DNA of 64,000 nucleotides from Myxococcota bacterium (GCA_036338695.1 JAYZBQ010000004.1:1-64000), one strand, 5' to 3'. Positions 5,630 through 28,819 are shown, counted from the stretch's first letter. Program-made: numbers and translations. The notes: generated by a model from the letters alone, not told the origin.

Positions 5630-5753
5630 GATTATCCTCTAGCATCGATGCCCGTCACTATCGCCTTGCGCAGTCCGTGACTAGCAAGGCCGGTGCTTTC
5701 TTGAGAGGACCGCTGAGTCGGGGCACACTGGGTTGGATCGAAAAGGGGTCGCG

Positions 5754-7061
5754 TTGCGTCGTTGGGTTCTCATCATGATCGGCGCCTGCTCGCTTGCGTG
5801 CGCCCAGGTGATCGAGGTCGAGAGCGTCGAGCGCTCAGGCGGCTACGGTGGCCCGTGCGTCGTCGGGTCGATCTGTGCCAACGGTCTGAGCTGCCAGTTT
5901 GGCTACTGCCCCCTGGTCGACGCGGGCACGGCTCCTGATGCCTCAAGCGGTGCAGCGGACGCAGCTCAGTTGCCCGAAGGGGTCTGCGGTGATGGGGTCT
6001 TGAACCGCGGTGAAGCCTGCGACGACGCAAACGACGCCCAAGACGATGCGTGCCTTTCTGACTGCACTCTGGCTCGCTGCGGTGATGGGGTGATTCGTCG
6101 TGATCTTGGTCCGCGTGATGAGGGGTACGAGATCTGCGACGATGGCAACGAGGTCGACGAGGATGCGTGTACCAGCGAGTGCGTCGTAGCCGTCTGCGGC
6201 GACGGCATCGTCCGAACCGATCTCGAGCCCGATGATCGAGCTTATGAAGCGTGCGATGACGGCAATTACGACTCGACCGACTCGTGCCTCGAGAGCTGCC
6301 GGTTCGCGCGTTGCGGCGACGGCTTTGTTCACGAGGGTGTGGAGGCCTGCGATCCGGGCGTGGAAGCTTTGGCTGCGTACTGCAGCGAGGACTGTGTCGT
6401 GCTTGGAGGCGTTCGCCTGGGCACAGGCGCTGAGGCTGAGGATCCGGCGTCGAACTGCCGCATCATCCAGTCGTTGGTGCCCGACGCGGCCGATGGTCTG
6501 TATTGGCTGGATACGGACGGCGATGGTGATGAGCCGGCGGCTCAGGTTCACTGCGACATGACGACGCAAGGAGGCGGCTGGACGCGCACGATGATGCTCC
6601 GCCGAGCTGATGCGCTCTGGGACGCGTGGATCACGCGCTCGGGTGACTCCGCTGCGGGTGTTTTGTACGGCTTACCCCTGCGAGACTTTGCCGCCGATGA
6701 GCGGGGGGAGTCGCTTGAGATCGTGTTCAAGGTCGATGGCGTCGCCCGACCCTTCGTTTATCGCGGTGTCCATTACAGTGCTTGGAACCCCGTGATGGGG
6801 CGTTCTCAGTACGACGACGCCTTTGAGTTGCGTCGCTTTGAAGACCAGGAATTTGCTCCTTGTACAGGGCGGTTTCGGCACGAAAACAGCAGCTGGAATT
6901 GGGCGATGGCGAGTGGCGGTGCGGGGTGTGGTGGTTACCGTACGACCGGATTTATTGTGCATGGATCGGGAAGCCAGCATGATCACGCTCATCAACTGTG
7001 GGGTCTCGGTGGATATGCTGCCACAACGACCTTTCAAACCATCGAGGTGCTGGTACGGTGA
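5754..7061 (+). CDS. Lipoprotein with 4 Myxococcus Cys-rich (DUF4215) repeats and a fibrinogen-like YCDxxxxGGGW domain
   Basis: Lipobox SLAC; CGDG..E.CDDGN repeats; ASNC..DGLYWL..HCDMTTQGGGW. Start uncertain (5733/5754/5775). Confidence 0.85.
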   Translation: MRRWVLIMIGACSLACAQVIEVESVERSGGYGGPCVVGSICANGLSCQFGYCPLVDAGTAPDASSGAADAAQLPEGVCGDGVLNRGEACDDANDAQDDACLSDCTLARCGDGVIRRDLGPRDEGYEICDDGNEVDEDACTSECVVAVCGDGIVRTDLEPDDRAYEACDDGNYDSTDSCLESCRFARCGDGFVHEGVEACDPGVEALAAYCSEDCVVLGGVRLGTGAEAEDPASNCRIIQSLVPDAADGLYWLDTDGDGDEPAAQVHCDMTTQGGGWTRTMMLRRADALWDAWITRSGDSAAGVLYGLPLRDFAADERGESLEIVFKVDGVARPFVYRGVHYSAWNPVMGRSQYDDAFELRRFEDQEFAPCTGRFRHENSSWNWAMASGGAGCGGYRTTGFIVHGSGSQHDHAHQLWGLGGYAATTTFQTIEVLVR

Positions 7062-9298
7062 AGCGACTTGTTCTGATCTTGGCTTTGCTCCCCTTCGCCG
7101 CCAGCGCGAGTGACGACGACATCTTCTTGCAAGGGATGGCGCCCGAGGTGGAAGAGAGTGAAAAAAAACCTGTCTTCGTTGTACCCCTGCAGCCTGTTTG
7201 GAACAGCGCAGACGCCAACCTGCTGCTCAAAGTGGGGAAGAACTTAGTCACCTTGATCGAAGAGGCTGGGCCCTGGAAGGTCGTCTTTTATGACGAGACC
7301 AAAGAGCTCAAAAAAGTGCAGGACCACGAAGCCCGGCTCCACAAAAAATGGCTTAAAGAGGTCGTCTACACCGAGGCGTTGCTCAAGCACCGGCGCGCCG
7401 GTCATGCCACGTCGGGCGCAGCGCGTGTGACCCGCCTGCAAAGTCAGAACGCAGGCTATCTGCGGACGCCGAATCTCTACTGCCGCAGCCTGATGATCGT
7501 CGCCGAGGGGCGCCTTTTTATGGGGCAAGTCGCCAAGGCGAAGAAGACGCTGCGCCGGCTCGCAGGGACCTGCGAGCGCGCGGACCTTGAGAAGAGCCGG
7601 TTGACGCCGACGAAGCGGTTCAAAGCCCTGCTTGAGGAGGCTCGGCAGGCGGCGGAGCGTGAAGCGAGCGGCGAGCTGACGGTGACAGTCGATGTGCCGG
7701 GGACGGACGTGTACCTAAACGGTCGGCGGCTTGGGCCGGCACCGCTGACGCTTAAAAAGATCCCAGCCGGCGAGCACCTCGTGGGCGTGTTTCGTGAGGG
7801 GTTTAAGCCTTGGGGTAAGAAGGTTCAGATCGATCCGGGCGAGACCGTGACGCTGCAAGCGACTGTGACCCGAGGCATGGGCGGACAGGATCAGCAGCGC
7901 ATGCTGTCGACGCTGCGTGACAACCGCGTCGACGCCAACGTGGCGCGGGTGGTCGGGCGCTTGTTCAAGCGCCACGGCAAGAAGGCCGTGATGGGGCTGT
8001 TTGGCGGCGTGGCGAAGCAGGGCAACCAGATCTGGGTGACGCTGTACGCTGTCGATAAGCGAGGCCGCGCCATTCGGCTCAAACAGATGAAGTTTGACCC
8101 AGACTTTTTGACGGCGCACCTGGCGCTGTCACCGGTCATGGAAGAGATCGGTGCGCTGGCAGAAGCCTTCCAAGGCTCCCTGCTGTCCCAAGCGATTTTG
8201 CTCGATGGCCTCGACGCCGTGGTGAGTAAGCCGCGTGTGCTGGGGTGGCGCGTGATGAAGGAGGAAGCGTCGGAGGCCGCGGGTGAGGTCGTCGCCCGAG
8301 GGCCGGTGCGGCGCGGTCCCGTGGGCCGAGGCGGTGCGCAAGCGGCGGTTGCGGCTGCGCCCGCAGCGCGCACTCGCCCCCCTGAGTCGGCGCCAGCATT
8401 TGCGAAGAAGTCGTCGAAGCAGGTGCCAACGACAAAGCCTGCAAAGCCAAAGGCGGCAGCCCCTAAAGCGCCCCCGACGCCGAGCCCTGAGGAGCTGGCT
8501 GCTGAGCTCGCCGCGCTCGACGCCGAGGAGGAGAGCCTCGCAGCGGAGATGGAGGCGCTCGCCGTCAAAGAGGCGTCGGAGGCGACCGGCCTCAGCGTTG
8601 AGCAGCTGCAACGGCGCGCCGAGCGCGACATGCGAATGCGTATTTGGGCTGCTATGGATCCGGATCACGTGCTCGAGTTCCAAGCCCTTGGGGCGCTCGG
8701 GTTGAGCAGCGCAAGCGGCGGCGCGCTTCAAGCGAGTTATCTTCGCCGGCAGCCGACGCCGATGCTCGGGGTTTGGGGTGCCTTTGGCGTGGAGGGCTTC
8801 GTCGGTCAGCTCGGAGCCGACTGGCAAGATCGTACCTATTTTGCGGCGATGGATAACCCGTTCAAGCAGAGCACACGCGACAACCCAGAGCTCAAAGAGC
8901 GGGTGCGCGTGATCCCGGGGAGCAGCCTCGGCCTGCGCGCCGTCGGGCGACTGGGTCTCGATTTAGGAGACGGTCGCCTGCGTCTTCTTGGGCAGGCGGG
9001 TCTCGGCTACGCCATGCACCGCTCCAGCCTGAAGCACGAGCAGTATACGATTGACTCCGAGGGCTTCGCCGTCGCCGGGAGCGGCGTCGCGATCCAAGAT
9101 TCGATCGTCTTCCCCTGGGCGGGGCCTGAGGTGAGCGGTTCAGTCGGGGCGGCTTACCGCCTTGTCGGGACCAGCTGGCGGTTGCTCGGCAAGGTGCAGT
9201 GGCAGCAGACGCTGCTGGGTAGTGTGCAGAGCTTTGTGACGGGTCAGGGCGCCCAGTCGACGCTCGGACTTGCGGTCGGGGTATCGGGAACTTTTTAG
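7058..9298 (+). CDS. Secreted PEGA-domain protein with Ala/Pro/Lys linker and probable C-terminal outer-membrane beta-barrel
   Basis: GTG overlaps the upstream TGA. Signal peptide; PEGA motif (GELTV..PGTDVYLNG..LG.APL..IPAGEH); alternating amphipathic strands ending GVSGTF. Confidence 0.8.
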   Translation: MKRLVLILALLPFAASASDDDIFLQGMAPEVEESEKKPVFVVPLQPVWNSADANLLLKVGKNLVTLIEEAGPWKVVFYDETKELKKVQDHEARLHKKWLKEVVYTEALLKHRRAGHATSGAARVTRLQSQNAGYLRTPNLYCRSLMIVAEGRLFMGQVAKAKKTLRRLAGTCERADLEKSRLTPTKRFKALLEEARQAAEREASGELTVTVDVPGTDVYLNGRRLGPAPLTLKKIPAGEHLVGVFREGFKPWGKKVQIDPGETVTLQATVTRGMGGQDQQRMLSTLRDNRVDANVARVVGRLFKRHGKKAVMGLFGGVAKQGNQIWVTLYAVDKRGRAIRLKQMKFDPDFLTAHLALSPVMEEIGALAEAFQGSLLSQAILLDGLDAVVSKPRVLGWRVMKEEASEAAGEVVARGPVRRGPVGRGGAQAAVAAAPAARTRPPESAPAFAKKSSKQVPTTKPAKPKAAAPKAPPTPSPEELAAELAALDAEEESLAAEMEALAVKEASEATGLSVEQLQRRAERDMRMRIWAAMDPDHVLEFQALGALGLSSASGGALQASYLRRQPTPMLGVWGAFGVEGFVGQLGADWQDRTYFAAMDNPFKQSTRDNPELKERVRVIPGSSLGLRAVGRLGLDLGDGRLRLLGQAGLGYAMHRSSLKHEQYTIDSEGFAVAGSGVAIQDSIVFPWAGPEVSGSVGAAYRLVGTSWRLLGKVQWQQTLLGSVQSFVTGQGAQSTLGLAVGVSGTF

Positions 9299-9372
9299 GC
9301 GGGTTGCTCCGAGTTTTGTCGGATGCGCTCAAGGAGGCGGTGTGGGCATGGTGTGCCCCCGAGGAGTCTCCG

Positions 9373-10755
9373 ATGAAAAACGCTGCGGTCGCGCTCGCGT
9401 CGTTGTTGGTCTTGTCGATGAGCTGTACCCCGACGCCTGAGGACTGGGGACAGGCTTCGAGCGCCTATGTGGAGCGTTGTGAGGGCGAGGCCTGCGCCCA
9501 AGGCAACGAGTGCGCAGGAGGATATTGCCTCAAGCCAGAAGACGCTGGCGACGACTACCGCCCTGGTCTTCGCTGCGGTGATGGGTTGGTACAGCGCTGG
9601 GAAGACTGCGATGATGGCAACGACATCAACACCGACAGCTGCCTGACCGGGTGCCGCGCTGCGCGCTGCGGCGACGGGTTTGTGCGCGCCCACCTCACGA
9701 GTCATGACCCGGAGTACGAAGCCTGCGATGATGGCAACCTCGATGACACCGATGGGTGCACCAGCGAGTGCCGTTTGGCGCGTTGCGGTGACGGTTTTGT
9801 GCGAGCGGATTTAGAGCCTGGCGAAGACGGCTATGAAGCCTGCGATGACGGCAATCGGTTCACGCGCGACGCGTGCGTTGACTGTGTCCCGGCGCGCTGC
9901 GGCGACGGGCTCGTTCACGACGGCGTCGAGACCTGCGATGACGGCAACGAGGAGCTCGACGATGGCTGCGTGGCGGACTGCCAGTCCGCGCGCTGCGGTG
10001 ACGGGCACGTACGCGCGGACGTCGAGCCCGGTGGTGTCGGTTACGAGCTCTGCGACGATGGCAACCAAGACCCCGAGGACGCGTGCGGAAACGACTGCTA
10101 CCCGAACGCTCTGCCGCAGGGGCTCGGGTCGGGACCAGACGATCTGGCGCACAGCTGCGGGCAGATCCTTGCGGCGAATCCTCAAGCGGGTGACGGGCTC
10201 TACTGGGTGGACGTAGACGGCGCTCGGCCGACCCCGCCTGCGCAGGTTCGTTGCGATATGCGGACGGATGGTGGCGGCTTTACGCGGATGATCTTGCTGC
10301 ACCAAGACCTGGCCCTTTGGAACGCTTGGACCGACGGACTGATCGGTCAACCCGAAGGCGATGACCCGTTCGGTATCCCGCTCAACTCGATGCAGAAGCC
10401 GTCTGCTGAGCTCGAGGTGTACTTCCGCCGTAACGGCGAGCGCGTGACCCCGATCCTAAGCGGGGTGTCGGCCTCGGTCTGGAACCCGATCGATCGGATT
10501 GAGGAAGCGGCAGGGGCGCTCATCTCGAGGGCGCCGGGCGCTGCGGCGAGCGAATGTTCAGAGCCGATCCTACGCGCAGCGGATCACTGGAACTGGAGCT
10601 TCGCCTCGGCCTCAGGCTGCGCAGCGCCAGGAGCTGGAGGCGTGGTGGTGTATGGCGATCCAGAGAATGACCTAGGCGACGCAGCGGTGCGGTTCCAAGG
10701 ACCGGCGATGGAGGCGGCGGAGCCGTTCGAGAGCCTGGAGGTTTGGGTTCGATGA
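9373..10755 (+). CDS. Lipoprotein with 5 DUF4215 repeats and a fibrinogen-like domain (paralog of 5754..7061)
   Basis: GAGGAG RBS; lipobox LSMSC; AHSC..DGLYWV..RCDMRTDGGGF; ends LEVWVR versus IEVLVR in the paralog. Confidence 0.85.
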   Translation: MKNAAVALASLLVLSMSCTPTPEDWGQASSAYVERCEGEACAQGNECAGGYCLKPEDAGDDYRPGLRCGDGLVQRWEDCDDGNDINTDSCLTGCRAARCGDGFVRAHLTSHDPEYEACDDGNLDDTDGCTSECRLARCGDGFVRADLEPGEDGYEACDDGNRFTRDACVDCVPARCGDGLVHDGVETCDDGNEELDDGCVADCQSARCGDGHVRADVEPGGVGYELCDDGNQDPEDACGNDCYPNALPQGLGSGPDDLAHSCGQILAANPQAGDGLYWVDVDGARPTPPAQVRCDMRTDGGGFTRMILLHQDLALWNAWTDGLIGQPEGDDPFGIPLNSMQKPSAELEVYFRRNGERVTPILSGVSASVWNPIDRIEEAAGALISRAPGAAASECSEPILRAADHWNWSFASASGCAAPGAGGVVVYGDPENDLGDAAVRFQGPAMEAAEPFESLEVWVR

Positions 10756-12533
10756 TGCTTCTGGCTGCAGCGTCGCTGCTTTTAGCAGATTTTCAGATGG
10801 GTCAATATGAGATGGCCGGAACCGCCAAGGACATCTCTTATCTGGGCTGGCATGGCGCGCCGACGAGCACCGAGCAGAGCACGGCGCTCACGAAGCTGCT
10901 CTCGCAGGCTGCGCGCACCGCAGGGCACAGGCTGCGCTCGGTGGCGCGTACGCAGCCAGCGGTTGATGACCTGGTTCAGCAGCAGGCGCTCGAGCTGGAG
11001 GTCTTGCTCGGGCTCGCAGGGCGTGCGGCTGAGCGAGCGCAGGGAGTCCTGCAGCTCCATCTTGGTCGACCCAGCCAGTTGTTGCGAAGCCATCAGCGCA
11101 GCTGTCGCTTATTTTACGCGGCGGCGGCCGCCTTTGAGCTCAACAGCCAAAAGCGTGCCGTCGACTTGATGCTCGGAGGGTTGGCGGGCTGCCGTGATGA
11201 CGGGCTCACCCACCTCGGCTGGTCGAGCGACTCGCTCGCAGCGCGCCTTAAAGGGATGCGGCAAGAGGGTGAGGCGACCCTGACGATTAAGGCGAGCGTT
11301 CCGGGTGCCCAGGCTTATCTCGACGGATTGTTTTTGGGCGCTCTGCCGGTCAAGGTGACCGGCATCCCAGCCGGTCGCCATCAGCTGCAGCTGGTGAGCG
11401 GGGCGGCGGGGCTGGCGATGGAGGTGGAGCTCAAGCCCGATCAGGTCGCACGCTTGGAGTTGACGGAGCCACAGCATGGACTCCCCGGTCTCTCCGATGG
11501 ACGACTCAGCGCCGCGGAGCTCAAAGCGCTCGCTAAAAACCTACCGCGCGGGGTTGGGCGCGGCTTGATCGTGCTCGGTAGCCGCTCGGGGTTATCGGCG
11601 CTGATCTTTAGCGCGAGCCAGGCGTTGGTCGTCCAAGGGCGCTCTGAGCAGGCGCTCGCCGCCGCCGTGCAGAACGGGTTGAAGTCGCTGCAGCCGCTGC
11701 CTCCAGGTGGGCTCGTCCTCAAAGGCGTTGCGGTCAGCGAGGGCGTCCCTGAGCGTAGCTTTGAGCGGATGCGACAGGCGGCCAGCCGCGATGAGCTCCC
11801 AGCGCCCACCGACGAGCTGGTGCGAGGGATGGTGAACTACGCAGCGCAAGCCACGGGGCGCTCAGCCTCGGAGCTGCGAGCGAAGGTTGAGCTGAGTCAA
11901 AAGCGCGGCGCGTGGCGAGCTCAGCGCGGGCATTGGTTGGTGCTTGGCGACCTCGAGCTGAGCAGCTCGAGCGCACTGGGTGTCGGCGGAGGTGTCTCGG
12001 CGCTGCGGCTGCAGCCGGCGACGACGTCGAGTCTGTGGTATGCGCTTGGCGTCCGCCTGCACGCAGGCGGCGCAGGGGCTTCCCCGAGCGGTGATGACTG
12101 GGACCCGATGCGCTATCCGATGGACCCGATCACTGCGACGGAGCCGACCTTAGAGGAGCGCATTCGTCTCGAGGGGGCAGGTCGCTTCGGCGTCGACGCG
12201 CTCGCAGGTGTCGGCTTCCAGCTCGGCAGCGATCTTCGGCTTCTGGCGCTGGCGGAGGGGGGCTGGCGCCAGGTCCAGGCCGACCTGGTCCATGAGCAGT
12301 ACGTCGTGGGTGAGGACGGCTCAACGAAAGAGCTGCGCCGAACGGGCGCGTTCCCATGGGGAGGGCGTCGTTTCGGCGCTCGGATGCTCGGCGTGTATGG
12401 TCTGGGTGCTTGGCAGGTCGGCGGCTCACTCGCCTGGTCGATGTCGCAGTTTCCAGCCGTTGAGCTCGACTTGGTGATCCCTGCCTCGAGCCAGAGCGTG
12501 CGGCTCGGTCTGGTTGTAGGCCGCCGCTTCTAG
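10752..12533 (+). CDS. PEGA-domain protein with probable C-terminal beta-barrel (paralog of 7058..9298)
   Basis: ATGA overlap; PEGA motif PGAQAYLDG..LG.LP..IPAGRH; shares L.ER.R, HEQY, FPW.G; ends GRRF. Confidence 0.8.
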   Translation: MMLLAAASLLLADFQMGQYEMAGTAKDISYLGWHGAPTSTEQSTALTKLLSQAARTAGHRLRSVARTQPAVDDLVQQQALELEVLLGLAGRAAERAQGVLQLHLGRPSQLLRSHQRSCRLFYAAAAAFELNSQKRAVDLMLGGLAGCRDDGLTHLGWSSDSLAARLKGMRQEGEATLTIKASVPGAQAYLDGLFLGALPVKVTGIPAGRHQLQLVSGAAGLAMEVELKPDQVARLELTEPQHGLPGLSDGRLSAAELKALAKNLPRGVGRGLIVLGSRSGLSALIFSASQALVVQGRSEQALAAAVQNGLKSLQPLPPGGLVLKGVAVSEGVPERSFERMRQAASRDELPAPTDELVRGMVNYAAQATGRSASELRAKVELSQKRGAWRAQRGHWLVLGDLELSSSSALGVGGGVSALRLQPATTSSLWYALGVRLHAGGAGASPSGDDWDPMRYPMDPITATEPTLEERIRLEGAGRFGVDALAGVGFQLGSDLRLLALAEGGWRQVQADLVHEQYVVGEDGSTKELRRTGAFPWGGRRFGARMLGVYGLGAWQVGGSLAWSMSQFPAVELDLVIPASSQSVRLGLVVGRRF

Positions 12534-12652
12534 GCGCAGGGATGGTGCCCCTGCCCTGGGTGCCGAAGCGAAACAGCAACACAACGTTTCGAAACCAACA
12601 TTTTTGAGGTGCCCGATTTGGGTTATGGTGCCTGCGAGCGCGCGGAGGCTTG

Positions 12653-13906
12653 ATGCGGAAATTGGGTCTGATCTTGGTGATGGTGGCATGCTCTGAGCCA
12701 ATCGCTGAACCGACGGGTTTTAGTGGCTTGGGCGCGCGCTGCGGTCCGACGCAGCCTTGCGCTGAAGGCCTGCGCTGCGCAGGCGGTTTGTGCTTAGCCG
12801 CCGTGCGCGATGGTGGCGCGGCTCTTGAGGACGTTGGCTCTTCGCCGATGGACGCCGGCGAGGCGACTGACACCGGGAGCAGCCCGGCACACGATGCAGG
12901 CGCCGAGCGGGTCGTTGGCGTGCAATGGGCGAGGCCTGATGGACGCGTGTCGATCGAGGAGGGGGAGCGACTCGACGCGGCGGTGGAGGTGTCGGGCGAT
13001 GATCTGAGCGGTTTGACGCTGCGCTGGAGCAGCTCGCTCGATGGGGTGATCGGCGACGATCAGATCCCGCCGACGGGGCGCGTCGTGCGCAGCATCTTGC
13101 TGCGTGAGCGGGGCGTGCATGAGCTGCGCGTTGAGGTGCTTGATGGGGAGCGCTCGCTCGCTGACGCCACGCGCCGGGTCGGCGTCTGTGGTTGGCAGGT
13201 GATCGGCGACTTCAACGCCGACCTTGAAGGCTGGCAACGCTTTGGCGACGCTCAGCGTGACCCGCGCGGTTGGCTCGAGCTGACGGGTAATGCGCGCGGC
13301 CGGAAGGGCGCAATTTACAAGGTCAGTGAGAGCATCGAGCCGGGCAATGTGCAGCTCGCGTTTCGCATCAGCACCGGGCAGTGTGATGAGCCCGGACCCT
13401 GTCAGTTTAACGCCAACAACGCGGCGGACGGTTTCGCGATGAACATTTGGGATGTGGAGTCGCCCGAGGCGCTCGCTGACTTGTTCGATGTGGCGTCGAC
13501 CGGCGGCGGCTTAGCCTATGGAGTAGGCGGCGCGTGGGGTGACTGGGTCGGCAACGCGTTCCATATCGAGTTTGACACCTGGTACAACCAGTTCAACGGT
13601 GGCAACGAGTTCCACACAGACCCTACGCGCCAGAACCACGTCGCCATCACCTTAGACGGTGACCCGGGTAACCACGTCGCGGTGGCGGAAACGCCGGCTA
13701 TTGAGGACAACGCGTGGCACGAGGTCGAACTCGTGATTCGTGGAGACCGGGTGCGCGTCGACCTGGACGGGCGCTCGGTGATCGATCAGCGCGTGGAGGG
13801 GCTCGACTTCAAAGGCGGCTATATCGGCTTTAGTGGCACGACCGGCTACTACACCAACTTTCACCGATTTGATGACCTGCGGACACGCCCGGCGTGTGAG
13901 CCTTAG
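12653..13906 (+). CDS. Lipoprotein with Ig-like segment and L-type (legume) lectin domain
   Basis: GGAGG RBS; lipobox MVAC; ADGFA, GGGLAY, IEFDTWYN, NHVAI, WHEV, GFSGTTG..H lectin motifs. Confidence 0.85.
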   Translation: MRKLGLILVMVACSEPIAEPTGFSGLGARCGPTQPCAEGLRCAGGLCLAAVRDGGAALEDVGSSPMDAGEATDTGSSPAHDAGAERVVGVQWARPDGRVSIEEGERLDAAVEVSGDDLSGLTLRWSSSLDGVIGDDQIPPTGRVVRSILLRERGVHELRVEVLDGERSLADATRRVGVCGWQVIGDFNADLEGWQRFGDAQRDPRGWLELTGNARGRKGAIYKVSESIEPGNVQLAFRISTGQCDEPGPCQFNANNAADGFAMNIWDVESPEALADLFDVASTGGGLAYGVGGAWGDWVGNAFHIEFDTWYNQFNGGNEFHTDPTRQNHVAITLDGDPGNHVAVAETPAIEDNAWHEVELVIRGDRVRVDLDGRSVIDQRVEGLDFKGGYIGFSGTTGYYTNFHRFDDLRTRPACEP

Positions 13907-14794
13907 CTAGGGCAGCACGCGCTCAAGCGCGGCGGCGTTCTTCACCCAGATCTCACCGTACGCCTTGGTGCGTCGGTCGCCGTTGTCACTCTGCCAGCGC
14001 CCGACCGCAAAGTTTCCGGTGATGACTTGGTCTCGATCGCTCCCGATCCCGATGAACGAGTCCGGCGTGTGGCAGTCGTTCTGCTCGTTGCCGAGGATCC
14101 CAAAGCGTAGACGGTGGCGAACGTTGATGCCCTCGGCGTTGCAGTTGGGTTGGAGCGAGGTCAGCGGGATCAGCGAGCGCCAGCGGTCGCGCCCGAGCTC
14201 CGTCAGGTGCTCGTCACCTCGTACCATCAGCTGGCGCATGCTCGACGCCTCATGACGGAGGGTGAGGTAGCGCGTGGTGCCATCGCCCTCCTCCGCGTCC
14301 TCGTCCACACGAAGACCGACGCGCAGGTCGGTGAAGGGGAGCTGCAGGTAGCCGGCATTTTTCATCTGACCGGGCCCTGGCGCGACCTCGTCTTCGTTCA
14401 AGAGCACGCTGTTGTACCAGATCGCCTCGTCGTATTTGAACGTCGTCTCATGACCGTCGACTTTCAGGATCAGCGTCCACGGTCCATCGTCCGCGTCGAG
14501 GTCGCAATAGGCGAGGAAGGCGTTGTCCGTTGAGCCGCCGACGGGGTTGAGCCAGTAGGCGTCGCTCGCAAGCTCGGGGTGTTCTTGAGCGAGGACCTCG
14601 CAGCTCAGCGCTGCGTCTTCCGGGCGCTCTCCGGCGCCTGGTAAGTGCACGACCGAGGCGTCGAGCGCAGCGGCTACGTCAGCCCCAACGCCTGTATCGA
14701 TCACGGAAGCCACAGGTCCGCTGGGGGGTTCGGCGGGCTCTTGGCAGGCGAGCGTCACGGCGGAGAGCAGTAAGCCGGTTGCGAAGCGTTTCAT
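13907..14794 (-). CDS. Fibrinogen-like (YCDxxxxG.W) lipoprotein
   Basis: Lipobox TLAC; ALSC..YWL..AYCDLDADDGPWTLILK; NCNAEGIN, RFGILGNEQNDCHTPDSFIGIG. Confidence 0.8.
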   Translation of the reverse strand: MKRFATGLLLSAVTLACQEPAEPPSGPVASVIDTGVGADVAAALDASVVHLPGAGERPEDAALSCEVLAQEHPELASDAYWLNPVGGSTDNAFLAYCDLDADDGPWTLILKVDGHETTFKYDEAIWYNSVLLNEDEVAPGPGQMKNAGYLQLPFTDLRVGLRVDEDAEEGDGTTRYLTLRHEASSMRQLMVRGDEHLTELGRDRWRSLIPLTSLQPNCNAEGINVRHRLRFGILGNEQNDCHTPDSFIGIGSDRDQVITGNFAVGRWQSDNGDRRTKAYGEIWVKNAAALERVLP

Positions 14795-20438: not shown

Positions 20439-23400
20439 ATGTTGCGATGTGTACCGTTGGTTTGCCTGCTTTTGGGGTGCTCACTGCGCGAGGCGCCGGC
20501 ACCAGCAACCCCTGTCTGCGGTAATGCGCTCGTTGAGCGCGGCGAGCGCTGTGATGACGGCAACACCAGCGACGACGACGGCTGCTCGAGCCGTTGCGCG
20601 CTGACCTATTGCGGCGACGGCCTCGTTCAGCCTTGGGAAGGTTGCGACGACGGGAACGCGGTGGATACGGACGGCTGCTCGAACGTCTGCCGTTCGGCTC
20701 AATGCGGTGACGGCATCGTCCAGAGCGACGAGGAGTGCGACCTCGGCGACGCCAACGGCGCCACCGCAGCCTGCTCGCCGCTCTGCCGCAACGCGGTCTG
20801 CGGGGACGGCTTTGTTCAAGAGGGTGAAGCCTGTGACGACGGAAACGCCGTCAACAACGACGCCTGCACGAACGCCTGCGCGCTGCCTCGCTGCGGTGAT
20901 GGGATCGTCCAGCCATGGGAAGCCTGCGATCCCGGTGAAGGCGCTGAGGATGCTGGCGCCGGGCAGTGCGTCAATTGTCGCGCAGCGCAGTGCGGCGATG
21001 GGGTCGTTCAAGGTGATGAAGAGTGTGATGACGGGAACGCAGCGAGCGACGACGAGTGCACCGTTTTGTGCCGTCGCCCGGTCTGCGGTGACGGCTTCGT
21101 ACAAGGCACTGAAGAGTGCGACGACGGCAACACCAACAATATGGACACCTGCACGAACGGCTGCACGGTCGCGGTCTGTGGTGACGGACACCGCTCGCCT
21201 TGGGAAGGCTGTGATGATGGCAACCGTGAGGGGGGCGACGGCTGCGACGCCAACTGCCGCAGCGAAGCGTGCGGTAACGGGCAGATCGACGGCGACGAAG
21301 CCTGCGATGACGGCAATGAGGTCGACACCGACGCCTGCACCAGCGCCTGCCAGATCGCTCGCTGCGGCGATAACTTTGTCTGGGAAGGGCGCGAGGAGTG
21401 TGACGACGGTAACGAGTCTGCGACGGACGCCTGCCTCAATACGTGCGTGATCGCGCGCTGTGGCGACGGCGTCCCGCGTGAGGACATCGCCGAAGGGCAG
21501 CCGGGTCATGAGGCCTGCGACGACGGCAATGGCTTTAACGGTGACGCCTGCACAGATCGGTGCGAGCGCGCGCGTTGCGGCGACGGTCACGTCGGTCCGG
21601 GCGAGTCATGCGATGACGGGGACAACGACGACGCCGACGCCTGCCGTAACGACTGCTCGGACGCCCGATGCGGTGATGGTCAGCGCCGCAACGACCTCGA
21701 GGCGGGTCAAGAGGGGTTCGAGGCGTGCGATGACGGCAATGAGGACGACGGCGACGCCTGCGTCGGTGCATGCCAGGTGGCGCGCTGCGGAGACAGTTTC
21801 GTTCAGCGTGGTGTCGAGGATTGCGATGACGGTAACCAGGTCCAGTCGGACGGCTGCCTCAACGACTGCACGGCGTCGCGTTGCGGCGACCAGATCGTCG
21901 GTCCCGGTGACGCGTGTGATGATGGTAACGAGCGCAACGACGACGGCTGTACCAACCGCTGCGCGTTGCCCGGTTGTGGAGACGGCTTCGTTCAAGACGG
22001 AGAAGAGTGTGACGACGGCAACGAGGTGAACACCGACGGCTGCCTGAACAGCTGCTTGAGCGCTGCCTGCGGTGATGGCGTGTTGCGCGGCGATTTGCAG
22101 GAGGGTGAGGGCGGCTTTGAAGCGTGCGATGACGGCAACCAAGTCGACACCGACGCCTGCACCAGCGGTTGTCTGGCGGCGCGCTGCGGTGACGGTTACG
22201 TGCGCGTCGGCGTGGAGGATTGTGATGACCGGAACCCCGCTGACGACGACGCCTGCACCAACGCGTGCCGCTTTGCGACCTGCGGTGACGGCGTGCGGCG
22301 TACGGACCTACCCGAGGACAACGAGGACTATGAAGCCTGCGACGATGGCAACCGCGATGAGCGCGACGCCTGCCGCTCCAACTGCATCGCCGCCGCTTGC
22401 GGTGACGGCATCCTGCGCAACGACCTGCAGGAGGGCGTGGATGGCTATGAAGCCTGTGATGACGGCAACATCATCCCCACGGACGGCTGCACGCACTTAT
22501 GCTTGGTCGCACGCTGCGGCGATGGGGTGATCCGTCAAGGGATCGAAGCCTGCGATGACGGCAACGAGGTCAACACTGACGGCTGCTTGAACACCTGCAG
22601 CGTTGCTCGCTGCGGTGACGGGGTGCTGCGAAACGACCTCGAGCTTGGTCAGCAGGGTCACGAAGCCTGCGATGATGGGAACCTCAACCAGCGAGACGCC
22701 TGCCTGAACCATTGTCAGGTGGCGATCTGCGGTGATGGCTACGTCCGGGGGGACGTCCCAGAGAATCACGAAGCGTACGAGGAGTGTGATGAGAACGACA
22801 ACTGCGTGGACTGCCGCCGCCCAGAGCCGAATGGAGGCGGTCAGGAGGATGCAGGGGTCATGGGGCTCGACAGCGGCATCAACGGGCGACCGGATGGGTT
22901 CTCTGAAGGGCCGCCCGAGGGGGGTCTCCCCGACCTCGGCTTCCCGGACCTGCCCGAGGCGGGCAATGACGCCGGACCGAGACCGGACATTGACAACCTG
23001 ATCCGAGACGCAGGTCCGCGGCCTGACCAGGGCCTGATCTTTGAGGCGGGCAATACGGACGTCTTTATCTTGATCGGCGATGCGCGCCCGCCGGGCTGGG
23101 ATGGTCCTGTCGGAGTCATCGACAGCGGTCCTCAGGACGTGCAGGGGAATCAGAGCCCGGATATTCCCGGTATACCCGACGCGAACATGCCTGAGGTTAA
23201 CCAGAATTTTGACATCGGGATGCAGCAGACCACGATCTGTGATCTGTGGAACTCGGGCATATTTCAGATCTGCACCAACTGTCACGGGAACTCAGGCGGT
23301 GTTCGAGTGGATCACACCTCGCCGCGTACGCTGCATGATAGCTTCGTTAACGTCGCTGGTAACTCAAACCTCGACCTCGTCTCGCCGCGTAACCCGCAAG

Positions 23401-23558
23401 GCTCTTATCTGTACGCCAAAATGCTGGGTGCGCAGAACTTCTATCCCGGTGGCGGGGGCGGGCGCATGCCTCAAGGTGGACCGTATTACAGCCAAGAAGA
23501 CCTTGCGCCTCTGCTGCGCTGGATTAACAGCGATAACCTCGCAGCGTGTCTGCCCTAG
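20439..23558 (+). CDS. Large lipoprotein: 23 DUF4215 Cys-rich repeats, Pro/Gly/Asp linker, C-terminal c-type cytochrome domain
   Basis: Lipobox LLGC; 23 CG[D/N]..C[D]xG units counted; CTNCH at 23271-23285 followed by SYLY and GGRMP. Confidence 0.88.
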   Translation: MLRCVPLVCLLLGCSLREAPAPATPVCGNALVERGERCDDGNTSDDDGCSSRCALTYCGDGLVQPWEGCDDGNAVDTDGCSNVCRSAQCGDGIVQSDEECDLGDANGATAACSPLCRNAVCGDGFVQEGEACDDGNAVNNDACTNACALPRCGDGIVQPWEACDPGEGAEDAGAGQCVNCRAAQCGDGVVQGDEECDDGNAASDDECTVLCRRPVCGDGFVQGTEECDDGNTNNMDTCTNGCTVAVCGDGHRSPWEGCDDGNREGGDGCDANCRSEACGNGQIDGDEACDDGNEVDTDACTSACQIARCGDNFVWEGREECDDGNESATDACLNTCVIARCGDGVPREDIAEGQPGHEACDDGNGFNGDACTDRCERARCGDGHVGPGESCDDGDNDDADACRNDCSDARCGDGQRRNDLEAGQEGFEACDDGNEDDGDACVGACQVARCGDSFVQRGVEDCDDGNQVQSDGCLNDCTASRCGDQIVGPGDACDDGNERNDDGCTNRCALPGCGDGFVQDGEECDDGNEVNTDGCLNSCLSAACGDGVLRGDLQEGEGGFEACDDGNQVDTDACTSGCLAARCGDGYVRVGVEDCDDRNPADDDACTNACRFATCGDGVRRTDLPEDNEDYEACDDGNRDERDACRSNCIAAACGDGILRNDLQEGVDGYEACDDGNIIPTDGCTHLCLVARCGDGVIRQGIEACDDGNEVNTDGCLNTCSVARCGDGVLRNDLELGQQGHEACDDGNLNQRDACLNHCQVAICGDGYVRGDVPENHEAYEECDENDNCVDCRRPEPNGGGQEDAGVMGLDSGINGRPDGFSEGPPEGGLPDLGFPDLPEAGNDAGPRPDIDNLIRDAGPRPDQGLIFEAGNTDVFILIGDARPPGWDGPVGVIDSGPQDVQGNQSPDIPGIPDANMPEVNQNFDIGMQQTTICDLWNSGIFQICTNCHGNSGGVRVDHTSPRTLHDSFVNVAGNSNLDLVSPRNPQGSYLYAKMLGAQNFYPGGGGGRMPQGGPYYSQEDLAPLLRWINSDNLAACLP
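20517..22815 (+). repeat. Intragenic tandem array of Myxococcus Cys-rich repeats (about 95-120 bp units)
   Basis: Recurring tgcgg[ct]ga[ct]gg and tgcga[ct]ga[ct]ggcaa motifs. Confidence 0.9.
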
Positions 23559-23770
23559 GCGTCTGAGGCGTCAACCTCGAAGCCGAGCTCGGCGCAGGTG
23601 CTCATGAGGCGCCCCAACCACGCCGTACCTTACCCGAAACCGCACGGTGATCGTCAGATGGTATGGGTTGACCCCTCGGTCAGGTTGATGGAGAGGCTCC
23701 CGTGCCCCTCAAAAACGAACAGAGCGCCCGAGGACGGACGCCCTGCTCGATGACCGCTGCGTGTGAGCGC

Positions 23771-26700
23771 CTACGGGTCGACCACGACCGAGCTTGCGCC
23801 TGTGGAGGCTTGGTCATCGGGGTTGTAGTAGCTGTACGCTCGGCTCGGCGGGTGCTGAGCCGAGACCGGGCGTGTTGCCTGAAGACCGAAGCGAAGCTGC
23901 CGGCGCTCGCGCGGCTGCAGCGCCATGAGGTAGAACGTGATGCGGCGATCCGTGCGCTCAAAGCGCTGAACCGCGCCTGACTCGACCAAGCGGTTCAAAT
24001 CATCGGCGAGCGCAACCATTCCCGGCGCCGTCGCCACGCTGACGATCACCTGGTCCATAGCGCCCTCATCAAGACGCGACGTCACCTCTGCGTCGACGCG
24101 CACGATCTCACCGACGCCTACCTGGCTGCGGTCATAGGTCACGCTCAGACCAAGCGATCCGACCTGCGCCGGCGGCCGGCTCCACGGCTCATAGCGGGTG
24201 CCGATCACCTGATACATGAGGGTCCCTTCACCTGCGAAGCGCAGTGCGATGTCGGCTGTGTCGCTGCTCAGCGTCTGCCCGCTCAGGTCCAAGGTGTGGT
24301 GAACGTCGGCGTTCTCCTCGCTCAGGGTGATCTCGCCGACCTGCTCGTCCCCTAAAAGCACCTCCACCGTGCCGTTGGCGTTCGCCGTCGCTCCGGCCGC
24401 TGCAAGCGTCAGCGCCCGCAGGGAGTTCATCGTCGCCTGGGTGGAGTACCAGTTGCCGAAGGCGTCCTTGGTCGCGGCAAGGAAGGTCAAACCGTCCGCC
24501 GCCACCGCCGCATGCTGACCGGCTTGCAGCATCGCTTGCACGACGAGTCCGGTCATCTCCACCTCACCAGGCGTCCCGCCGCCGCGCGCGCCTGTCCAGG
24601 AGTTGCCGGCAAAGGCCCACTTGATCTGACCGTCGGTCACCGTTTCTCCCGCCTCGACCAAGCGGTTGAGCATCACGGTCAGCAGCGGATCATCCGGTGC
24701 GGCGAGCGCAAACAGGTTGGCGACCAGGGCTACGGCGTAGAGGTCGTCGGTCTGCTCGACGCGGGCTCGCAGGTAGCGCAGCGCCAGCTGCACCGAGCTG
24801 CCTGCTTTGCCGTCGTAGTGGAGCCCCGTAGCGATGTAGGCGGTCGAGCGCAGCACGTCCTCGCCGAGTGACTCGTTGCCAGCGTGCAAGGCGTCCCCAG
24901 CGGGCCACGAGCCGTCCGTCGCTTGCTGTTCGATCAGCCAGGCGCGGTGGCGATCCGCAACGGCCTCATCGGTGGCGATGATGCCCTCGAGGTCTGCGAA
25001 CTGCCACAGCGCGATCGCGGTGAGGATGCGGTTGCCTGGGTCGTTGTTGCCCCACCAGTTGTACCCACCGGTCGGTGATTCAAAAGTCAGGATGCGCTGG
25101 TAGCCTGAGCGCAACAGGTCGATCGCTCGATTGAGCAGCTCGTCGTCGTCTTGCCCCGTGGCGAGCAGGTAGTTGTAGACCATGATGTTCGGCCAAGCCG
25201 TGGAGGTGGTCTGCTCGAAGCAGCCGCTCGGCATCTTGAGCATCGAGTCGATGCCCTCAACCGCCGACGTCGCGAGCCCTGGGTAGAGCTTCACCAAGAG
25301 CTCGTTGGCGCCCTCTACGCCCTCTGGCAGGTTCATCGAGACGTTCGCTGGAGCCGCGCCCAAGCGACCGCCTACGGTCTGGATCTCAGCGTCACCATCG
25401 GGTTGGATGCGGACGCTGCGCCGGACGGCGTCGGCCTCCTCGCCAGCGATCGCCTGCACCTCGATCTCAACGGTCCCGACGCGCTCTGCGCGCAGGATGT
25501 AGGTGGCGCGCTTGACCTCGCGCGGCCCGAGCTCAACGCTGAGCTCCGCACCGCCGATCAGCGTCATCCCCTCGACCGGCTGGAGCGTGAGCGCCACGCG
25601 TTGAGCGTCCTCAAGGTAGTTGTAGACGATCACCGGGACATGGACTTCATCGCCGCGCGTCATGCTCACCGGGAGGTCGAGGTCGACGAAGAAGGGCTGA
25701 AAGACGATCAGGTCGCCCTCGCCGCTGCCGATGTGTCCCGTCGCCGAGTTGGCTTGCGCTGCGATCTTCCACGTCGTGATCGAGTCGGCGACGCGCAGGC
25801 CTTGCTCGGCGCGGCCGTCTTCATCGGTGATGATCATCGGCGCTGCGATGAGTGTCTCGGGGAACCAGCTGCGCACGCGCGGTGCGCCAGGCGCTGCGCC
25901 CCCGCCGCCTTCGTTCTGCTCGACGTTCGCTTCGGGTGGCTCAGGTTGACCGGGGTCAGCCTGTTCTGGCGCGCCCGCCGCCATGTCATCCGCTTCGGCA
26001 AAGCCCGTCCCGCGCTGCTGAGCGATGGCGACGCTCAGGTCGGCGGCGACCCGCAGGTCATCGACGGTGCCAAAGACCTCGTCGGCGCCACTCGAGACCA
26101 AGGTCGCCTGCCAACCGCCGACCTCGAACTGGTAGATTTTACCGAACGGGTCGGCGCGGCCAGTGAGCATGCGCTCCATGACGCCCTCGTAGTTTTCAAA
26201 GTCGACGTCGCCCGCTTCCCATTGGTTTTTGAGCTCCTCGACCAGACCGTCGAGCTCCCGCTGGAGTCGAGCGGTGAGGTGGGTCTTCGCTGCAGCCTGG
26301 TCGATCACCTCAGAGTCTTGATTGACCGTTGCGCCGGCGCCGCTCAAGCGAGCGAAGGCTGCCTCGGCGACGGTCTCATCTCGGCTCGAGAGGGCGCGAT
26401 TGATGCTCACCGAGGGCGCAGGGCTCTGATCTTGCCCCGGGCGCAGCCCGAGGTCGAAGTAGCTCTCCGAGACCCCAGGTTTCGCCGGGGAGAGACCAAA
26501 GACGGATTCGTCGACCGCGGTCAAACCGACAGCGGCCTGCTGCGGGTTGCCCTCGGCGTCGCGCACCTGGATCGCCAGCCGCGCGTTCTCGCCGGGTCGG
26601 TAGCTTGGCTTCTCGGGCGTGATCGCCACGTTGATCACCTTACCGCCGTCAACGTGCACCAGGCTCAGGCCAGTGTAGAGCGCCCCCTCGGCGCTGCGTT

Positions 26701-28561
26701 GCAGCGCACGGATCTGGACCCCGCCGTGTAGATCGGTCGGGAGGTTGAGCTGCGCGGTGGCGCGTGCGTCGCTGATCTCGACGGAGCTGGACGCAAGCAC
26801 CTTGCCCTCGCGCAGCGCATCGACGATCACTCTGCCGTTGTGGCTCGAGGTGAGGTCGACGTTGAGCGCCTCGCCCGCTCGCACAAAGCGTTTCTCGGGC
26901 GCCACGAGGATCCCATCCACCAAGCCATCGATCATGACCTGAGCGCTGTGCGCCTGAGCGCCCAGCACGTCGACGCGCAGCTCGGTGGCGAGCTCCATGG
27001 CGGGCAGCTCGATGCGCGCAACGCCTGAGGCGTTGCTGGTGGCCTCGAGCGCTCCGCCGCCTGGAAGGGTCACGCGCAGCTCCGCTTGGATGGGCTGACC
27101 ACCCGGGTTGGTGACCAGGATGAGCGCAGGTTGAGCGACCTTCTTGAGCCAGCGGCCTGCGCTTGGCTGGATCAGGACGCGGCTCGGACCACCAGCCACG
27201 GGGAGCGTGCGCTGGCTCTGGAGCCGCTGCCCGGCGCTGTCCGTTGCGGTGAGGGTGAGCCGATAAGCCGCCTTGCCCTGCGCGACCAGCAGCGGGTCAA
27301 AGCGGCCGACGTCGAGCTGGAAGTCGAGCTGCCCGGCGGCGTTCGTGCGCCCCTCAAAGCGAGTGACCGTCGAGGCTGCGCCGTCGCGAACGGCGTCGCC
27401 GAGGAGCTCGATCGTGGCGTTGGGCACGGGCTGACCAAAGGGGTAACGCAGGCTGAGTGAGCCGCTGAGCTGACCGCCGGGGCTCAGCCAGCTGCGCTCG
27501 AGCTGGAAAGTCACCAGCATCCGAGGGAGCCGGTAGCGCTCGACGATCACCCGCTCTTCGACGGCGGTCTCACCGACCTGCGTGCGGATCAAGTAGGTGC
27601 CTTCGTTGACTCGATCGGCGAGCTTGAAGTCGATCGCCGCCACGCCATAGGCGTTGCTCGTCTCGGTGTGGCGATGCACGCGGTTCTCAGCGCCATCAAA
27701 GATCTCGAAGACGATCGGCTGGTTGGCGCTCGGGCTGCGGTCACCCGCCTCGACGGCGAGCACGCGCAGGTGCATCGTCTGACCGGGTTGATAGCGAGGC
27801 TTATCGGTCGTGACTTGGATGCGCTTGGTGCTCACAAAGTCGATCGGTACGCTCAAGAGCGCCTGACCCGAAGCACCGGCGCTGCTGAGGCGAAGGGTCG
27901 CTGCACCCGCCGTGAAATCGGTCAGGTCGGCTTCGAGCTCGGCGAGCCCGGAGGCGTCGCTGGTGGCTGAGCCGAGCGTTTTCAGCTCGCCCTCACCTTG
28001 TTGCAGACCAAAGTCGACCACGGCGCCTGCCACGACCTCGCCGGAGCTGGCGTCGCGCACGTAGCTGCGAAAGACCGTCGATGAGTTGACCGCAAGTTGG
28101 CGCGAGCCGATGGCGTGGAGCGCCAGGCGTGAGACTGCGCTGAACAGCGAGCGGCGCGCCCGGACGCGGTGATCACCCGCCGTCACGACCGCCTCGACGA
28201 CATACTTAGCGAGGTCGCCCAGCGCGTCGACCTGGACCCCGCTGAGCTCGGCTGAGACTCCGGCGCCTGGTGTGCTCAGGGTCACGCTTGCGGTCTCTTT
28301 TGCCACCGTCACGTCGCGCTCAGCGGCGAGGTTGATGAGCCGCATCTCGACCCTGGCGTCTTCGCTCCCCTCGCTAAGCGCCACAGGGACCGCCAGCGTG
28401 ACCGTGTTGCCGCTGAGTGAGGCTGTGATCAGGTTTTCATCCAACGAGAGCGGGCCGGAGACCAGCTTGTCCGGCAGGAGCCGATCGCCGCTGCTCGGCT
28501 GGGTACAGCCGATGGCGACGAGGGTGAGTCCGGCGAGAGCGGCGCGTGGCAGACCGAGCAT
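23771..28561 (-). CDS. Alpha-2-macroglobulin/thioester-containing (TEP) family lipoprotein, about 1596 aa
   Basis: GGAGG RBS then ATG at 28561; lipobox AIGC; TDKPRYQPGQ (MG2), RSWFPETL, DSITTW, PSGCFEQ thioester, STQAT, YSYYNP. Confidence 0.93.
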   Translation of the reverse strand: MLGLPRAALAGLTLVAIGCTQPSSGDRLLPDKLVSGPLSLDENLITASLSGNTVTLAVPVALSEGSEDARVEMRLINLAAERDVTVAKETASVTLSTPGAGVSAELSGVQVDALGDLAKYVVEAVVTAGDHRVRARRSLFSAVSRLALHAIGSRQLAVNSSTVFRSYVRDASSGEVVAGAVVDFGLQQGEGELKTLGSATSDASGLAELEADLTDFTAGAATLRLSSAGASGQALLSVPIDFVSTKRIQVTTDKPRYQPGQTMHLRVLAVEAGDRSPSANQPIVFEIFDGAENRVHRHTETSNAYGVAAIDFKLADRVNEGTYLIRTQVGETAVEERVIVERYRLPRMLVTFQLERSWLSPGGQLSGSLSLRYPFGQPVPNATIELLGDAVRDGAASTVTRFEGRTNAAGQLDFQLDVGRFDPLLVAQGKAAYRLTLTATDSAGQRLQSQRTLPVAGGPSRVLIQPSAGRWLKKVAQPALILVTNPGGQPIQAELRVTLPGGGALEATSNASGVARIELPAMELATELRVDVLGAQAHSAQVMIDGLVDGILVAPEKRFVRAGEALNVDLTSSHNGRVIVDALREGKVLASSSVEISDARATAQLNLPTDLHGGVQIRALQRSAEGALYTGLSLVHVDGGKVINVAITPEKPSYRPGENARLAIQVRDAEGNPQQAAVGLTAVDESVFGLSPAKPGVSESYFDLGLRPGQDQSPAPSVSINRALSSRDETVAEAAFARLSGAGATVNQDSEVIDQAAAKTHLTARLQRELDGLVEELKNQWEAGDVDFENYEGVMERMLTGRADPFGKIYQFEVGGWQATLVSSGADEVFGTVDDLRVAADLSVAIAQQRGTGFAEADDMAAGAPEQADPGQPEPPEANVEQNEGGGGAAPGAPRVRSWFPETLIAAPMIITDEDGRAEQGLRVADSITTWKIAAQANSATGHIGSGEGDLIVFQPFFVDLDLPVSMTRGDEVHVPVIVYNYLEDAQRVALTLQPVEGMTLIGGAELSVELGPREVKRATYILRAERVGTVEIEVQAIAGEEADAVRRSVRIQPDGDAEIQTVGGRLGAAPANVSMNLPEGVEGANELLVKLYPGLATSAVEGIDSMLKMPSGCFEQTTSTAWPNIMVYNYLLATGQDDDELLNRAIDLLRSGYQRILTFESPTGGYNWWGNNDPGNRILTAIALWQFADLEGIIATDEAVADRHRAWLIEQQATDGSWPAGDALHAGNESLGEDVLRSTAYIATGLHYDGKAGSSVQLALRYLRARVEQTDDLYAVALVANLFALAAPDDPLLTVMLNRLVEAGETVTDGQIKWAFAGNSWTGARGGGTPGEVEMTGLVVQAMLQAGQHAAVAADGLTFLAATKDAFGNWYSTQATMNSLRALTLAAAGATANANGTVEVLLGDEQVGEITLSEENADVHHTLDLSGQTLSSDTADIALRFAGEGTLMYQVIGTRYEPWSRPPAQVGSLGLSVTYDRSQVGVGEIVRVDAEVTSRLDEGAMDQVIVSVATAPGMVALADDLNRLVESGAVQRFERTDRRITFYLMALQPRERRQLRFGLQATRPVSAQHPPSRAYSYYNPDDQASTGASSVVVDP

Positions 28562-28819
28562 AGAGAGCCTCCTTGAGCGCGTCGGGTTAGCGACCCGAGC
28601 GTAAGCAGTCGGTAGACTAGCCGAATATTGAGTTGGCGCAAACACCTGCGGTGATCCAGCGAGGCCGAGGATGCCGGGGCGAGGGCGCTGCGCACGGGAC
28701 CTCCCGGACTCGACTTGGCGCTGCGGCCATGTTTTGGCAGTAGGTGCCCACGAGGGCGGCGCCTCGCGCGGCGCTTGTGACTTATCAAGCCCTTCCTTCG
28801 GGCGGACGCAGGACCTGTT

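Follow-up and report, generated by a model that had tools for sequence, protein, structure and literature searches.

The minus strand of a 64,000-nucleotide stretch of DNA from a Myxococcota bacterium (GCA_036338695.1 JAYZBQ010000004.1:1-64000), referred to here as the window, encodes a large protein with a GCFEQ thioester motif and, downstream of it, a His placed as in complement C3. A preliminary description had identified an α2-macroglobulin (A2M)-like thioester protein, had set it apart from Escherichia coli-type bacterial A2M partly by the absence of a neighboring pbpC gene, and had proposed that it may covalently tag glycans or surfaces rather than only trap proteases. To which type of thioester protein does the window protein belong, and what does its His say about its function? 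The family assignment stands: this is an A2M-family thioester protein, with the CxEQ motif of the A2M/TEP superfamily, which we take to be MEROPS I39.

The gene (23771..28561, minus strand, stop codon included) is an open frame with Pfam matches to MG2, A2M_BRD, A2M, TED_complement, and A2M_recep. It likely starts at the ATG at 28561, giving a protein of 1,596 amino acids (aa) (P0002), and a catalogued protein of equal length is recorded as a product of the window. A Shine-Dalgarno-like AGGAGG (28568..28573, minus strand) lies 6 nt upstream of the ATG, and the frame opens with a signal peptide (28505..28561, minus strand) that ends in a lipobox-like AIGC (Cys19). By this motif, a lipid anchor is likely; a loose lipobox pattern, run without a control, matches 81 of 114 full-length homologues. 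Directly past the stop codon there is an intrinsic-terminator-like hairpin with a T run (23716..23749, minus strand; 1 found versus 0.2 ± 0.4 in shuffles), and the upstream gene, encoding an acyl-CoA synthetase, is divergent. The thioester protein gene therefore stands alone. Contigs from four RNA runs (four studies) closely match parts of the gene, the share being small in three of the four; such contigs show neither transcription nor its level. NCBIfam assigns no family to the protein, and no longer fused forms (2,794-5,000 aa) were found in 2,770 candidates, which is weak evidence. An orthologue is present in four of five genomes of the same taxonomic family (TED identity 64-85%) and was not found in the fifth, which is 59% complete. 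Among the matches listed, the nearest named homologues are from Myxococcota.

Elsewhere in the window, 5733-14794 and 20439-23558 hold a probable surface-protein cluster with DUF4215 cysteine-rich repeats, PEGA domains, a lectin-like domain, and partial fibrillar-collagen C-terminal matches. Strong DUF4215 paralogues number at least seven in the source genome. The convergent DUF4215 gene was considered as a partner of the thioester protein and rejected, being on the homologue's contig in one of five relatives.

Both motif residues of the preliminary description read as it had them. The thioester Cys codon is TGC at 25222-25220 (minus strand) within GCFEQ, and the His codon is CAC at 24886-24884 (minus strand), in the same frame and 112 codons away, within QQATDGSWPAGDALH. 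As identified from the sequence and the homologue alignment, the CFEQ motif (25211..25222, minus strand) corresponds to Cys1114-Gln1117. It is followed by a QQATDGSW hairpin motif (24905..24928, minus strand), which animal TEPs share and which the aligned classical bacterial A2Ms either lack or have in degenerate form, and then by His1226 (24884..24886, minus strand). In phmmer alignments, His1226 falls on His1084 of A2ML1, the His of CD109, and Asn1088 of A2M (A2ML1 and A2M residue numbers counted by hand from the printed alignments). This upholds the proposed equivalence to the C3/C4B site, which runs via A2ML1 (PMC7864068, in part). Comparison of the window protein with its 119 closest homologues shows an invariant thioester Cys and Gln (120/120) and, at the His column, 92 sequences of 120 with His, the spacing being 112 in 84 of these; the motif match therefore exceeds chance. 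His1226 sits 7 residues past the hairpin aromatic versus 8 in 48 of 51 eukaryote-type sequences, which makes its loop one residue short, and residues 1224-1227 have a pLDDT below 50 in an AlphaFold model that is otherwise native-like.

Across 361 distinct family sequences, a set biased to close relatives, the site is His in 158, Asp in 54, Ala in 40, Asn in 36, Phe in 33, another residue in 26, and unscorable in 14, i.e. His is replaced in 189 of the 347 scored members. The 158 His-bearing sequences divide into 98, including the window protein, at aromatic+7 and 60 at +8, the animal spacing. In the short-loop subgroup of 98, the His is consistently kept, mostly as L-H-A/S-G. Complement C4A has Asp at the equivalent site. 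As judged from sequence, the variation in the family (His, Asp, Asn, Ala) parallels the animal series, in which C3, C4B, and A2ML1 have His and A2M has Asn (PMC7864068, in part).

What the His does is best documented for A2ML1, in which His1084 is required for glycerol adducts and for trapping a lysine-blocked protease, according to the available text of PMC7864068; that of PMC9156758 likewise treats the A2ML1 His in hydroxyl reactivity. An A2M N1088H mutant gained little hydroxyl reactivity (PMC7864068, in part), which means that the residue is not by itself decisive. Moreover, A2ML1 has the His and is a protease inhibitor; the residue therefore predicts hydroxyl reactivity, not opsonin function. 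By analogy, hydroxyl reactivity of the window thioester is a reasonable and probable prediction, and opsonin function is not predicted. A His at this site is thus no support for tagging of glycans or surfaces, since A2ML1 carries the His yet conjugates proteases (PMC7864068, in part).

MG domains, bait region, CUB, TED, and a C-terminal MG8 are all present in order, as assessed by Pfam, the model, and fold searches. The thioester domain, TED (about aa 1095-1390; 24392..25279, minus strand), is matched by Pfam PF07678 (E 3e-37), and its model superposes on C4Adg at 2.9 Å over 280 residues. The C-terminal MG8/receptor-binding-type domain (23774..24154, minus strand) is identified by Pfam A2M_recep (E 1e-7) and by the model. 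A predicted bait region at aa 848-890 (25892..26020, minus strand) is disordered (pLDDT <50), Ala/Gly/Pro/Glu-rich, and poorly conserved, with 23% identity to the closest named homologue (L024) and 61-81% in the other regions. Such disorder and low identity are as expected for a bait region.

In bacterial A2Ms, the pocket that shields the thioester consists of two TED tyrosines and a Met-Tyr of the last domain; in animals, it is the last domain that provides three tyrosines and a Met (PMC4498604, in part). Sequence comparison finds the three tyrosines of the animal-type pocket in the MG8 of the window protein as YSYY (23825..23836, minus strand). The pocket position that is Met in A2M is Gln1504 (24050..24052, minus strand); of 55 aligned family members, 48 have Met there. 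All 21 of the classical bacterial A2Ms compared have YPY before the thioester and none of 349 GCFEQ-clade sequences does; the window protein has MPS. In the last domain of the clade (n=350), YxYY is found in 293 sequences, an aromatic variant in 42, MY in 7, and other residues in 8; MY is found in 16 of the 21 classical bacterial A2Ms.

These features separate the window protein from classical bacterial A2M, as do database searches. With a threshold of E 0.001, a PDB search with the whole protein returned 52 animal-type sequences and no bacterial A2M. By phmmer, the best solved sequence matches are A2ML1, A2M, and CD109 (E 1e-47 to 1e-50), with TEP1 and C3/C4 behind them, and a profile of 19 family TEDs scores 170 bits on CD109, 95 on C3d, and 31.5 on Salmonella A2M. 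The pairing of YPY in the TED with MY in the last domain, typical of type I bacterial A2M, is absent from the window protein, which does not group with YfhM in the tree: the classical group (100/100) and the GCFEQ clade (99/98) are separate. It does not fit type II bacterial A2M (MagD/YfaS) either, having CFEQ and no six-gene operon arrangement. The reported absence of pbpC is real, with none beside the gene and no PbpC match in the window or in any homologous locus examined (54 of the 79 named loci have at least 2.5 kb of flank per given side). As an argument, it does not discriminate. The pbpC homologue of the source genome is on contig C95 and its classical A2M is on C60, also without pbpC on the contig; a missing pbpC therefore says little about type. 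That the window protein is not of the pbpC-linked E. coli type nonetheless holds, by its separate clade and its other pocket. The classical gene, the second A2M of the genome (L002; G000:C60:13967-20191, minus strand), encodes YPYGCMEQ and has no His loop. An Anaerolineales genome (G127:C9:125158-159174) carries six classical-type A2M genes in tandem, with YPYEC-type motifs in the two examined.

The AlphaFold model covers aa 400-1594 with a mean pLDDT of 82.8 and a pTM of 0.62. Foldseek aligned it with native forms at TM 0.53 (A2ML1), 0.52 (CD109), and 0.49 (TEP1r), and with cleaved forms at 0.29-0.37. Salmonella and E. coli A2M reach TM 0.45, the preference for A2ML1/CD109 being modest and the rmsd values large. 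With VIA-align, the best match is TEP1r (Z 38.4), followed by A2ML1 (36.6) and native C3 (35.1), the last superposing at 4.7 Å over 606 residues; classical bacterial A2Ms are absent among the best 50 rows, which we do not take as evidence. Because the opsonin TEP1r, A2ML1, and C3 are all close, the fold does not separate a trap from a tag. The nearest ESM Atlas clusters (0.93-0.96) mix TED/A2M_recep and bMG10 families and therefore do not discriminate.

Ahead of the bait region there is a folded insert (aa 750-841; 26039..26314, minus strand) made of a long helix and a three-stranded sheet, with pLDDT mostly above 90. It carries a GspG pseudopilin-like motif, DPFG..Y..S.G.D...T.DD, which is visible in the window protein and at profile level corresponds to the GspG C-terminal motif (DPWG..Y..S.GPD...DD); it presumably includes the calcium-binding aspartates of GspG. 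A profile built from 31 hand-chosen insert sequences matches five GspG structures (E 8e-6 to 9e-4, ∼37 residues), with no other matches below E 1. Pfam T2SSG is matched by 11 of the 31 insert-bearing members, and not by the window's own segment. Foldseek ranks GspG/EpsG 1-3 for the insert (E 0.19-0.27, none at E 0.001 or better), and VIA-align places pilins at Z 4.9-6.2 amid unrelated matches, none with Z ≥8. The insert lacks a prepilin cleavage site and a hydrophobic N-terminal helix; it is an internal domain whose helix is amphipathic by inspection. Across the family, the pre-bait slot is occupied by GspG-like, carboxypeptidase-regulatory-like, or FliF-like domains, or by hydrophobic helices. 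In five homologues (L055, L056, L063, L072, and L103), long hydrophobic helices mid-macroglobulin replace the GspG-like insert, and the pre-bait region of L063 has a type IV pilin-like N-terminal motif.

The family is widespread. A scan of one genome per species yielded at least 600 matches, and the 79 loci parsed from the best 80 of these are from Myxococcota (27), Acidobacteriota (24), Armatimonadota (6), Planctomycetota (3), Verrucomicrobiota (3), Chloroflexota (3), and four more phyla with one each, 9 being without phylum. A profile search cut off at E 1e-30 gives 2,870 representatives, animal and other groups included. By its sequence features, the GCFEQ family is a bacterial clade spanning several phyla, in which the His loop and the tyrosine pocket are of animal type and a pseudopilin-like insert precedes the bait region. 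No ORF flanking the gene in the window clusters with ORFs of the 79 homologous loci. In 8 of 24 Acidobacteriota loci (L064, L077, L084, L089, L091, L093, L095, and L099), an ECF sigma/anti-sigma (zf-HC2) pair lies upstream of the TEP gene, in keeping with a role in envelope stress. A zf-HC2 anti-sigma domain is fused N-terminally in 3 of 20 hand-picked long homologues (P0077, P0228, and P0266), which may be protease sensors; an anti-sigma pattern matched 1 of 223 proteins and missed two Pfam-positive cases. In P0266, a FliF/YscJ-like domain also occupies the pre-bait slot. Two homologues, L223 (G075:C449) and one at G084:C438, have one in-frame TGA within the TED match.

A second prokaryotic group lies closer still to the animal proteins. 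Scanning metagenome contigs for the animal motif returned at least 118 loci, many of them intron-free and flanked by prokaryote-like genes, one of the loci scoring 194 bits versus human A2M. This GCGEQ group (L104-L221, L251-L268; P0348 and P0337) consists mostly of Chloroflexota proteins, ∼1,380-aa lipoprotein-like TEPs with GCGEQNM and a CD109-like layout, and its named members are from Dehalococcoidia and Actinomycetota; 108 of 110 of its sequences have the His. In the phylum of an Anaerolineae genome, 18 of 301 genomes score 241-319 bits on the Pfam TED model. These comparisons place the GCGEQ group nearer to animal proteins than is the window's clade. On a Terriglobales contig, a second, convergent GCGEQ TEP with a weak T2SSG match lies beside a GCFEQ member (L083:9545-15433, minus strand); its branch is long and its placement unsure.

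A quick tree was made from an MG7 to MG8 alignment of 67 representatives, and a careful one from 35 rows and 641 columns, 32 rows having been dropped. In the latter, a single branch sets off each of three groups from all other rows: classical A2Ms (100/100), the GCFEQ clade (99/98), and the eukaryote-type rows (99/99). The phylogeny suggested against eukaryotic TEP/CD109 thus shows a window clade distinct from both eukaryote-type and classical bacterial rows and, by path length, intermediate between animals and classical A2Ms. GCGEQ prokaryotes form a group with eukaryotes (100/99), the eukaryotes joining four of eight GCGEQ rows at 100/99, and GCGEQ monophyly is found in 0 of 200 bootstrap trees. 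An AU test on the 35 rows does not reject monophyly of GCGEQ prokaryotes (p 0.15), so nesting of eukaryotes inside the group is not forced. The root was assumed, not inferred: placed on the classical branch, it would mean that animal TEPs originated in bacteria, and placed on the eukaryote stem, that there was a single early transfer into bacteria. Under either root, no prokaryotic row falls within the sampled eukaryotic diversity. Branches in these trees are long, composition is uneven, and eukaryotes are thinly sampled (two CD109-like proteins of vertebrates, insect proteins, and loci labelled eukaryotic by inference), with vertebrate C3, C4, and A2M left out. L163 is 92-93% identical to aphid proteins. 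One intron-free TEP, encoded on ocean metagenome scaffold L150, splits off at the base of the eukaryote-type rows. It has the His and a hydrophobic tail at its C terminus, and it may come from a non-animal eukaryote.

One reading of these trees is that the His-tuned complement thioester is a prokaryotic invention, the GCFEQ clade and its mostly Chloroflexota sister being the source of the eukaryotic C3/A2M/CD109/TEP ancestor. This would reverse the usual account of animal-to-bacteria transfer, with bacteria varying the His site as animals do and swapping accessory domains, e.g. the pseudopilin-like module, in the pre-bait slot. We put it forward tentatively, as possible but somewhat doubtful. 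Its strongest form, in which the window protein tags foreign cell surfaces covalently, we consider improbable.

Two types of bacterial A2M are recognised, E. coli-like and MagD-like (PMC12939704, PMC13069473, and PMC5764988, in part), which are regarded as structurally distinct from the animal proteins and as probable acquisitions from animals (PMC5764988, PMC9156758, and PMC13069473, in part). The full texts, as far as available, contain no description of the GCFEQ clade, its His, or the Chloroflexota group; supplementary trees or tables may already hold members. The closest known protein is human A2ML1 (PDB 7q1y), a monomeric protease inhibitor and the best sequence and Foldseek match, which shares the aligned His, the MG7-CUB-TED-MG8 order, and YxYY in MG8. 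Unlike A2ML1, the window protein is bacterial, with a lipobox-like N terminus, an extra N-terminal Ig-like sequence, CFEQ instead of CGEQ, a His loop one residue shorter, a GspG-like insert, and about 18-24% identity over structural alignments. Human CD109 (8s3o, 9fx2), top-scoring in the family TED profile, has an aligned His, and insect TEP1 (2pn5) is represented by the top VIA-align match; the window protein differs from both in having no C-terminal anchor and a likely N-terminal lipid anchor, and we found no evidence of TEP1-type partners. It shares with C3/C4B a homologous TED and the native domain arrangement, whereas their sequence scores are lower than those of A2ML1, A2M, and CD109, and it has no anaphylatoxin or C345C matches and no convertase genes were seen. 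C3 has Glu two residues after the His; the window protein has Gly there. With type I bacterial A2M (YfhM/ECAM, Salmonella), it shares its bacterial and probable lipoprotein nature, CxEQ, a bait region, and the A2M fold. In contrast to YfhM, it gives no bMG1/2/5/6 or CUB_A2MG matches, and it differs from type I in its His loop, in YxYY instead of MY, and in lacking both YPY before the thioester and a pbpC neighbor. Archaeal CxEQ A2M homologues likewise are TED proteins of prokaryotes in which the motif is intact, and a role in defence/conflict has been proposed for them; they are described with other domain layouts and without mention of the His, and are set apart here by that description only (PMC8416519, in part). 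The window protein can thus be classed as a bacterial thioester macroglobulin of animal type, from a clade that is apparently undescribed.

By analogy with A2ML1, we predict, at slightly better than even confidence, that it is a stand-alone, monomeric covalent protease trap, likely lipid-anchored in the envelope, with probable hydroxyl reactivity. The thioester would form and be shielded by MG8 until a foreign protease cut the bait linker; the TED would then swing out and His1226 would attack the thioester to form an acyl-imidazole, opening the reaction to Ser/Thr/Tyr hydroxyls and sugars in addition to lysines. The nearest nucleophile, usually on the cutting protease, would be captured, and the GspG-like insert would assist in placing or partnering the trap. 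A monomeric trap depends on covalent capture (PMC7864068, in part), and both known bacterial A2M types trap proteases (PMC5764988, in part). The match of the model to native forms, the best matches to A2ML1, A2M, and CD109, and the variable, disordered linker at the bait position argue for such a trap; the Gln1504 in place of the pocket Met, the short His loop with its pLDDT below 50, and a pilin-like insert without counterpart in known traps argue against it. The classical A2M of the genome may also leave the window protein room for another job. Complement-like tagging would have a host or contact-induced protease cleave the protein, whose thioester would then bind glycans on a neighbor, prey, a particle, or the cell's own envelope, with the insert helping to aim. 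This would suit the His at the C3/C4B site, the VIA-align results for TEP1r and native C3, the varied accessory domains of the pre-bait slot, and nearest named relatives in Myxococcota, a phylum with many predators. We nevertheless regard it as unlikely: the protein ends at MG8 with no Pfam match to an anaphylatoxin or C345C domain, no protease or receptor gene recurs beside its homologues in the 79 loci, the His is replaced in more than half of the scored members (189/347), a lipid anchor would limit reach, and in A2ML1 the His serves protease capture (PMC7864068, in part).

It is less likely again that the short loop keeps His1226 off the thioester, making the protein an amine-preferring trap that behaves like A2M or ECAM. 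The aromatic+7 position, the low pLDDT of the loop, the small gain of A2M N1088H (PMC7864068, in part), and the thioester motif retained by members with Ala, Phe, Asn, or Asp are all in line with this idea, but the consistent His in the 98 short-loop sequences and in 60 others at the animal spacing makes the residue look selected. Least probable, in our view, is a protease sensor, in which bait cleavage and the ensuing conformational change would alert a signalling system to attack on the envelope, capture being incidental. The zf-HC2 fusions and the ECF sigma/anti-sigma pairs of Acidobacteriota point that way; the window protein, however, carries no cytoplasmic domain but a signal peptide and lipobox-like motif, it lacks an ECF neighbor, and the anti-sigma pattern, which missed two cases, matched a single protein of the 223. 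The absence of complement domains and of recurring neighbors, together with the bait-like linker, thus favors a covalent protease trap over tagging, an amine-only trap, and a sensor.

Taken together, these findings give no sign that the His alone confers a new function. They point to a third, widespread bacterial A2M type that shares its His loop and tyrosine pocket with animal proteins. Because His, Asn, Asp, and Ala variants occur naturally in single intron-free genes, the rules of thioester specificity become directly testable, and with the GCFEQ clade and the Chloroflexota group, the origin of complement and A2M becomes a testable phylogenetic question.
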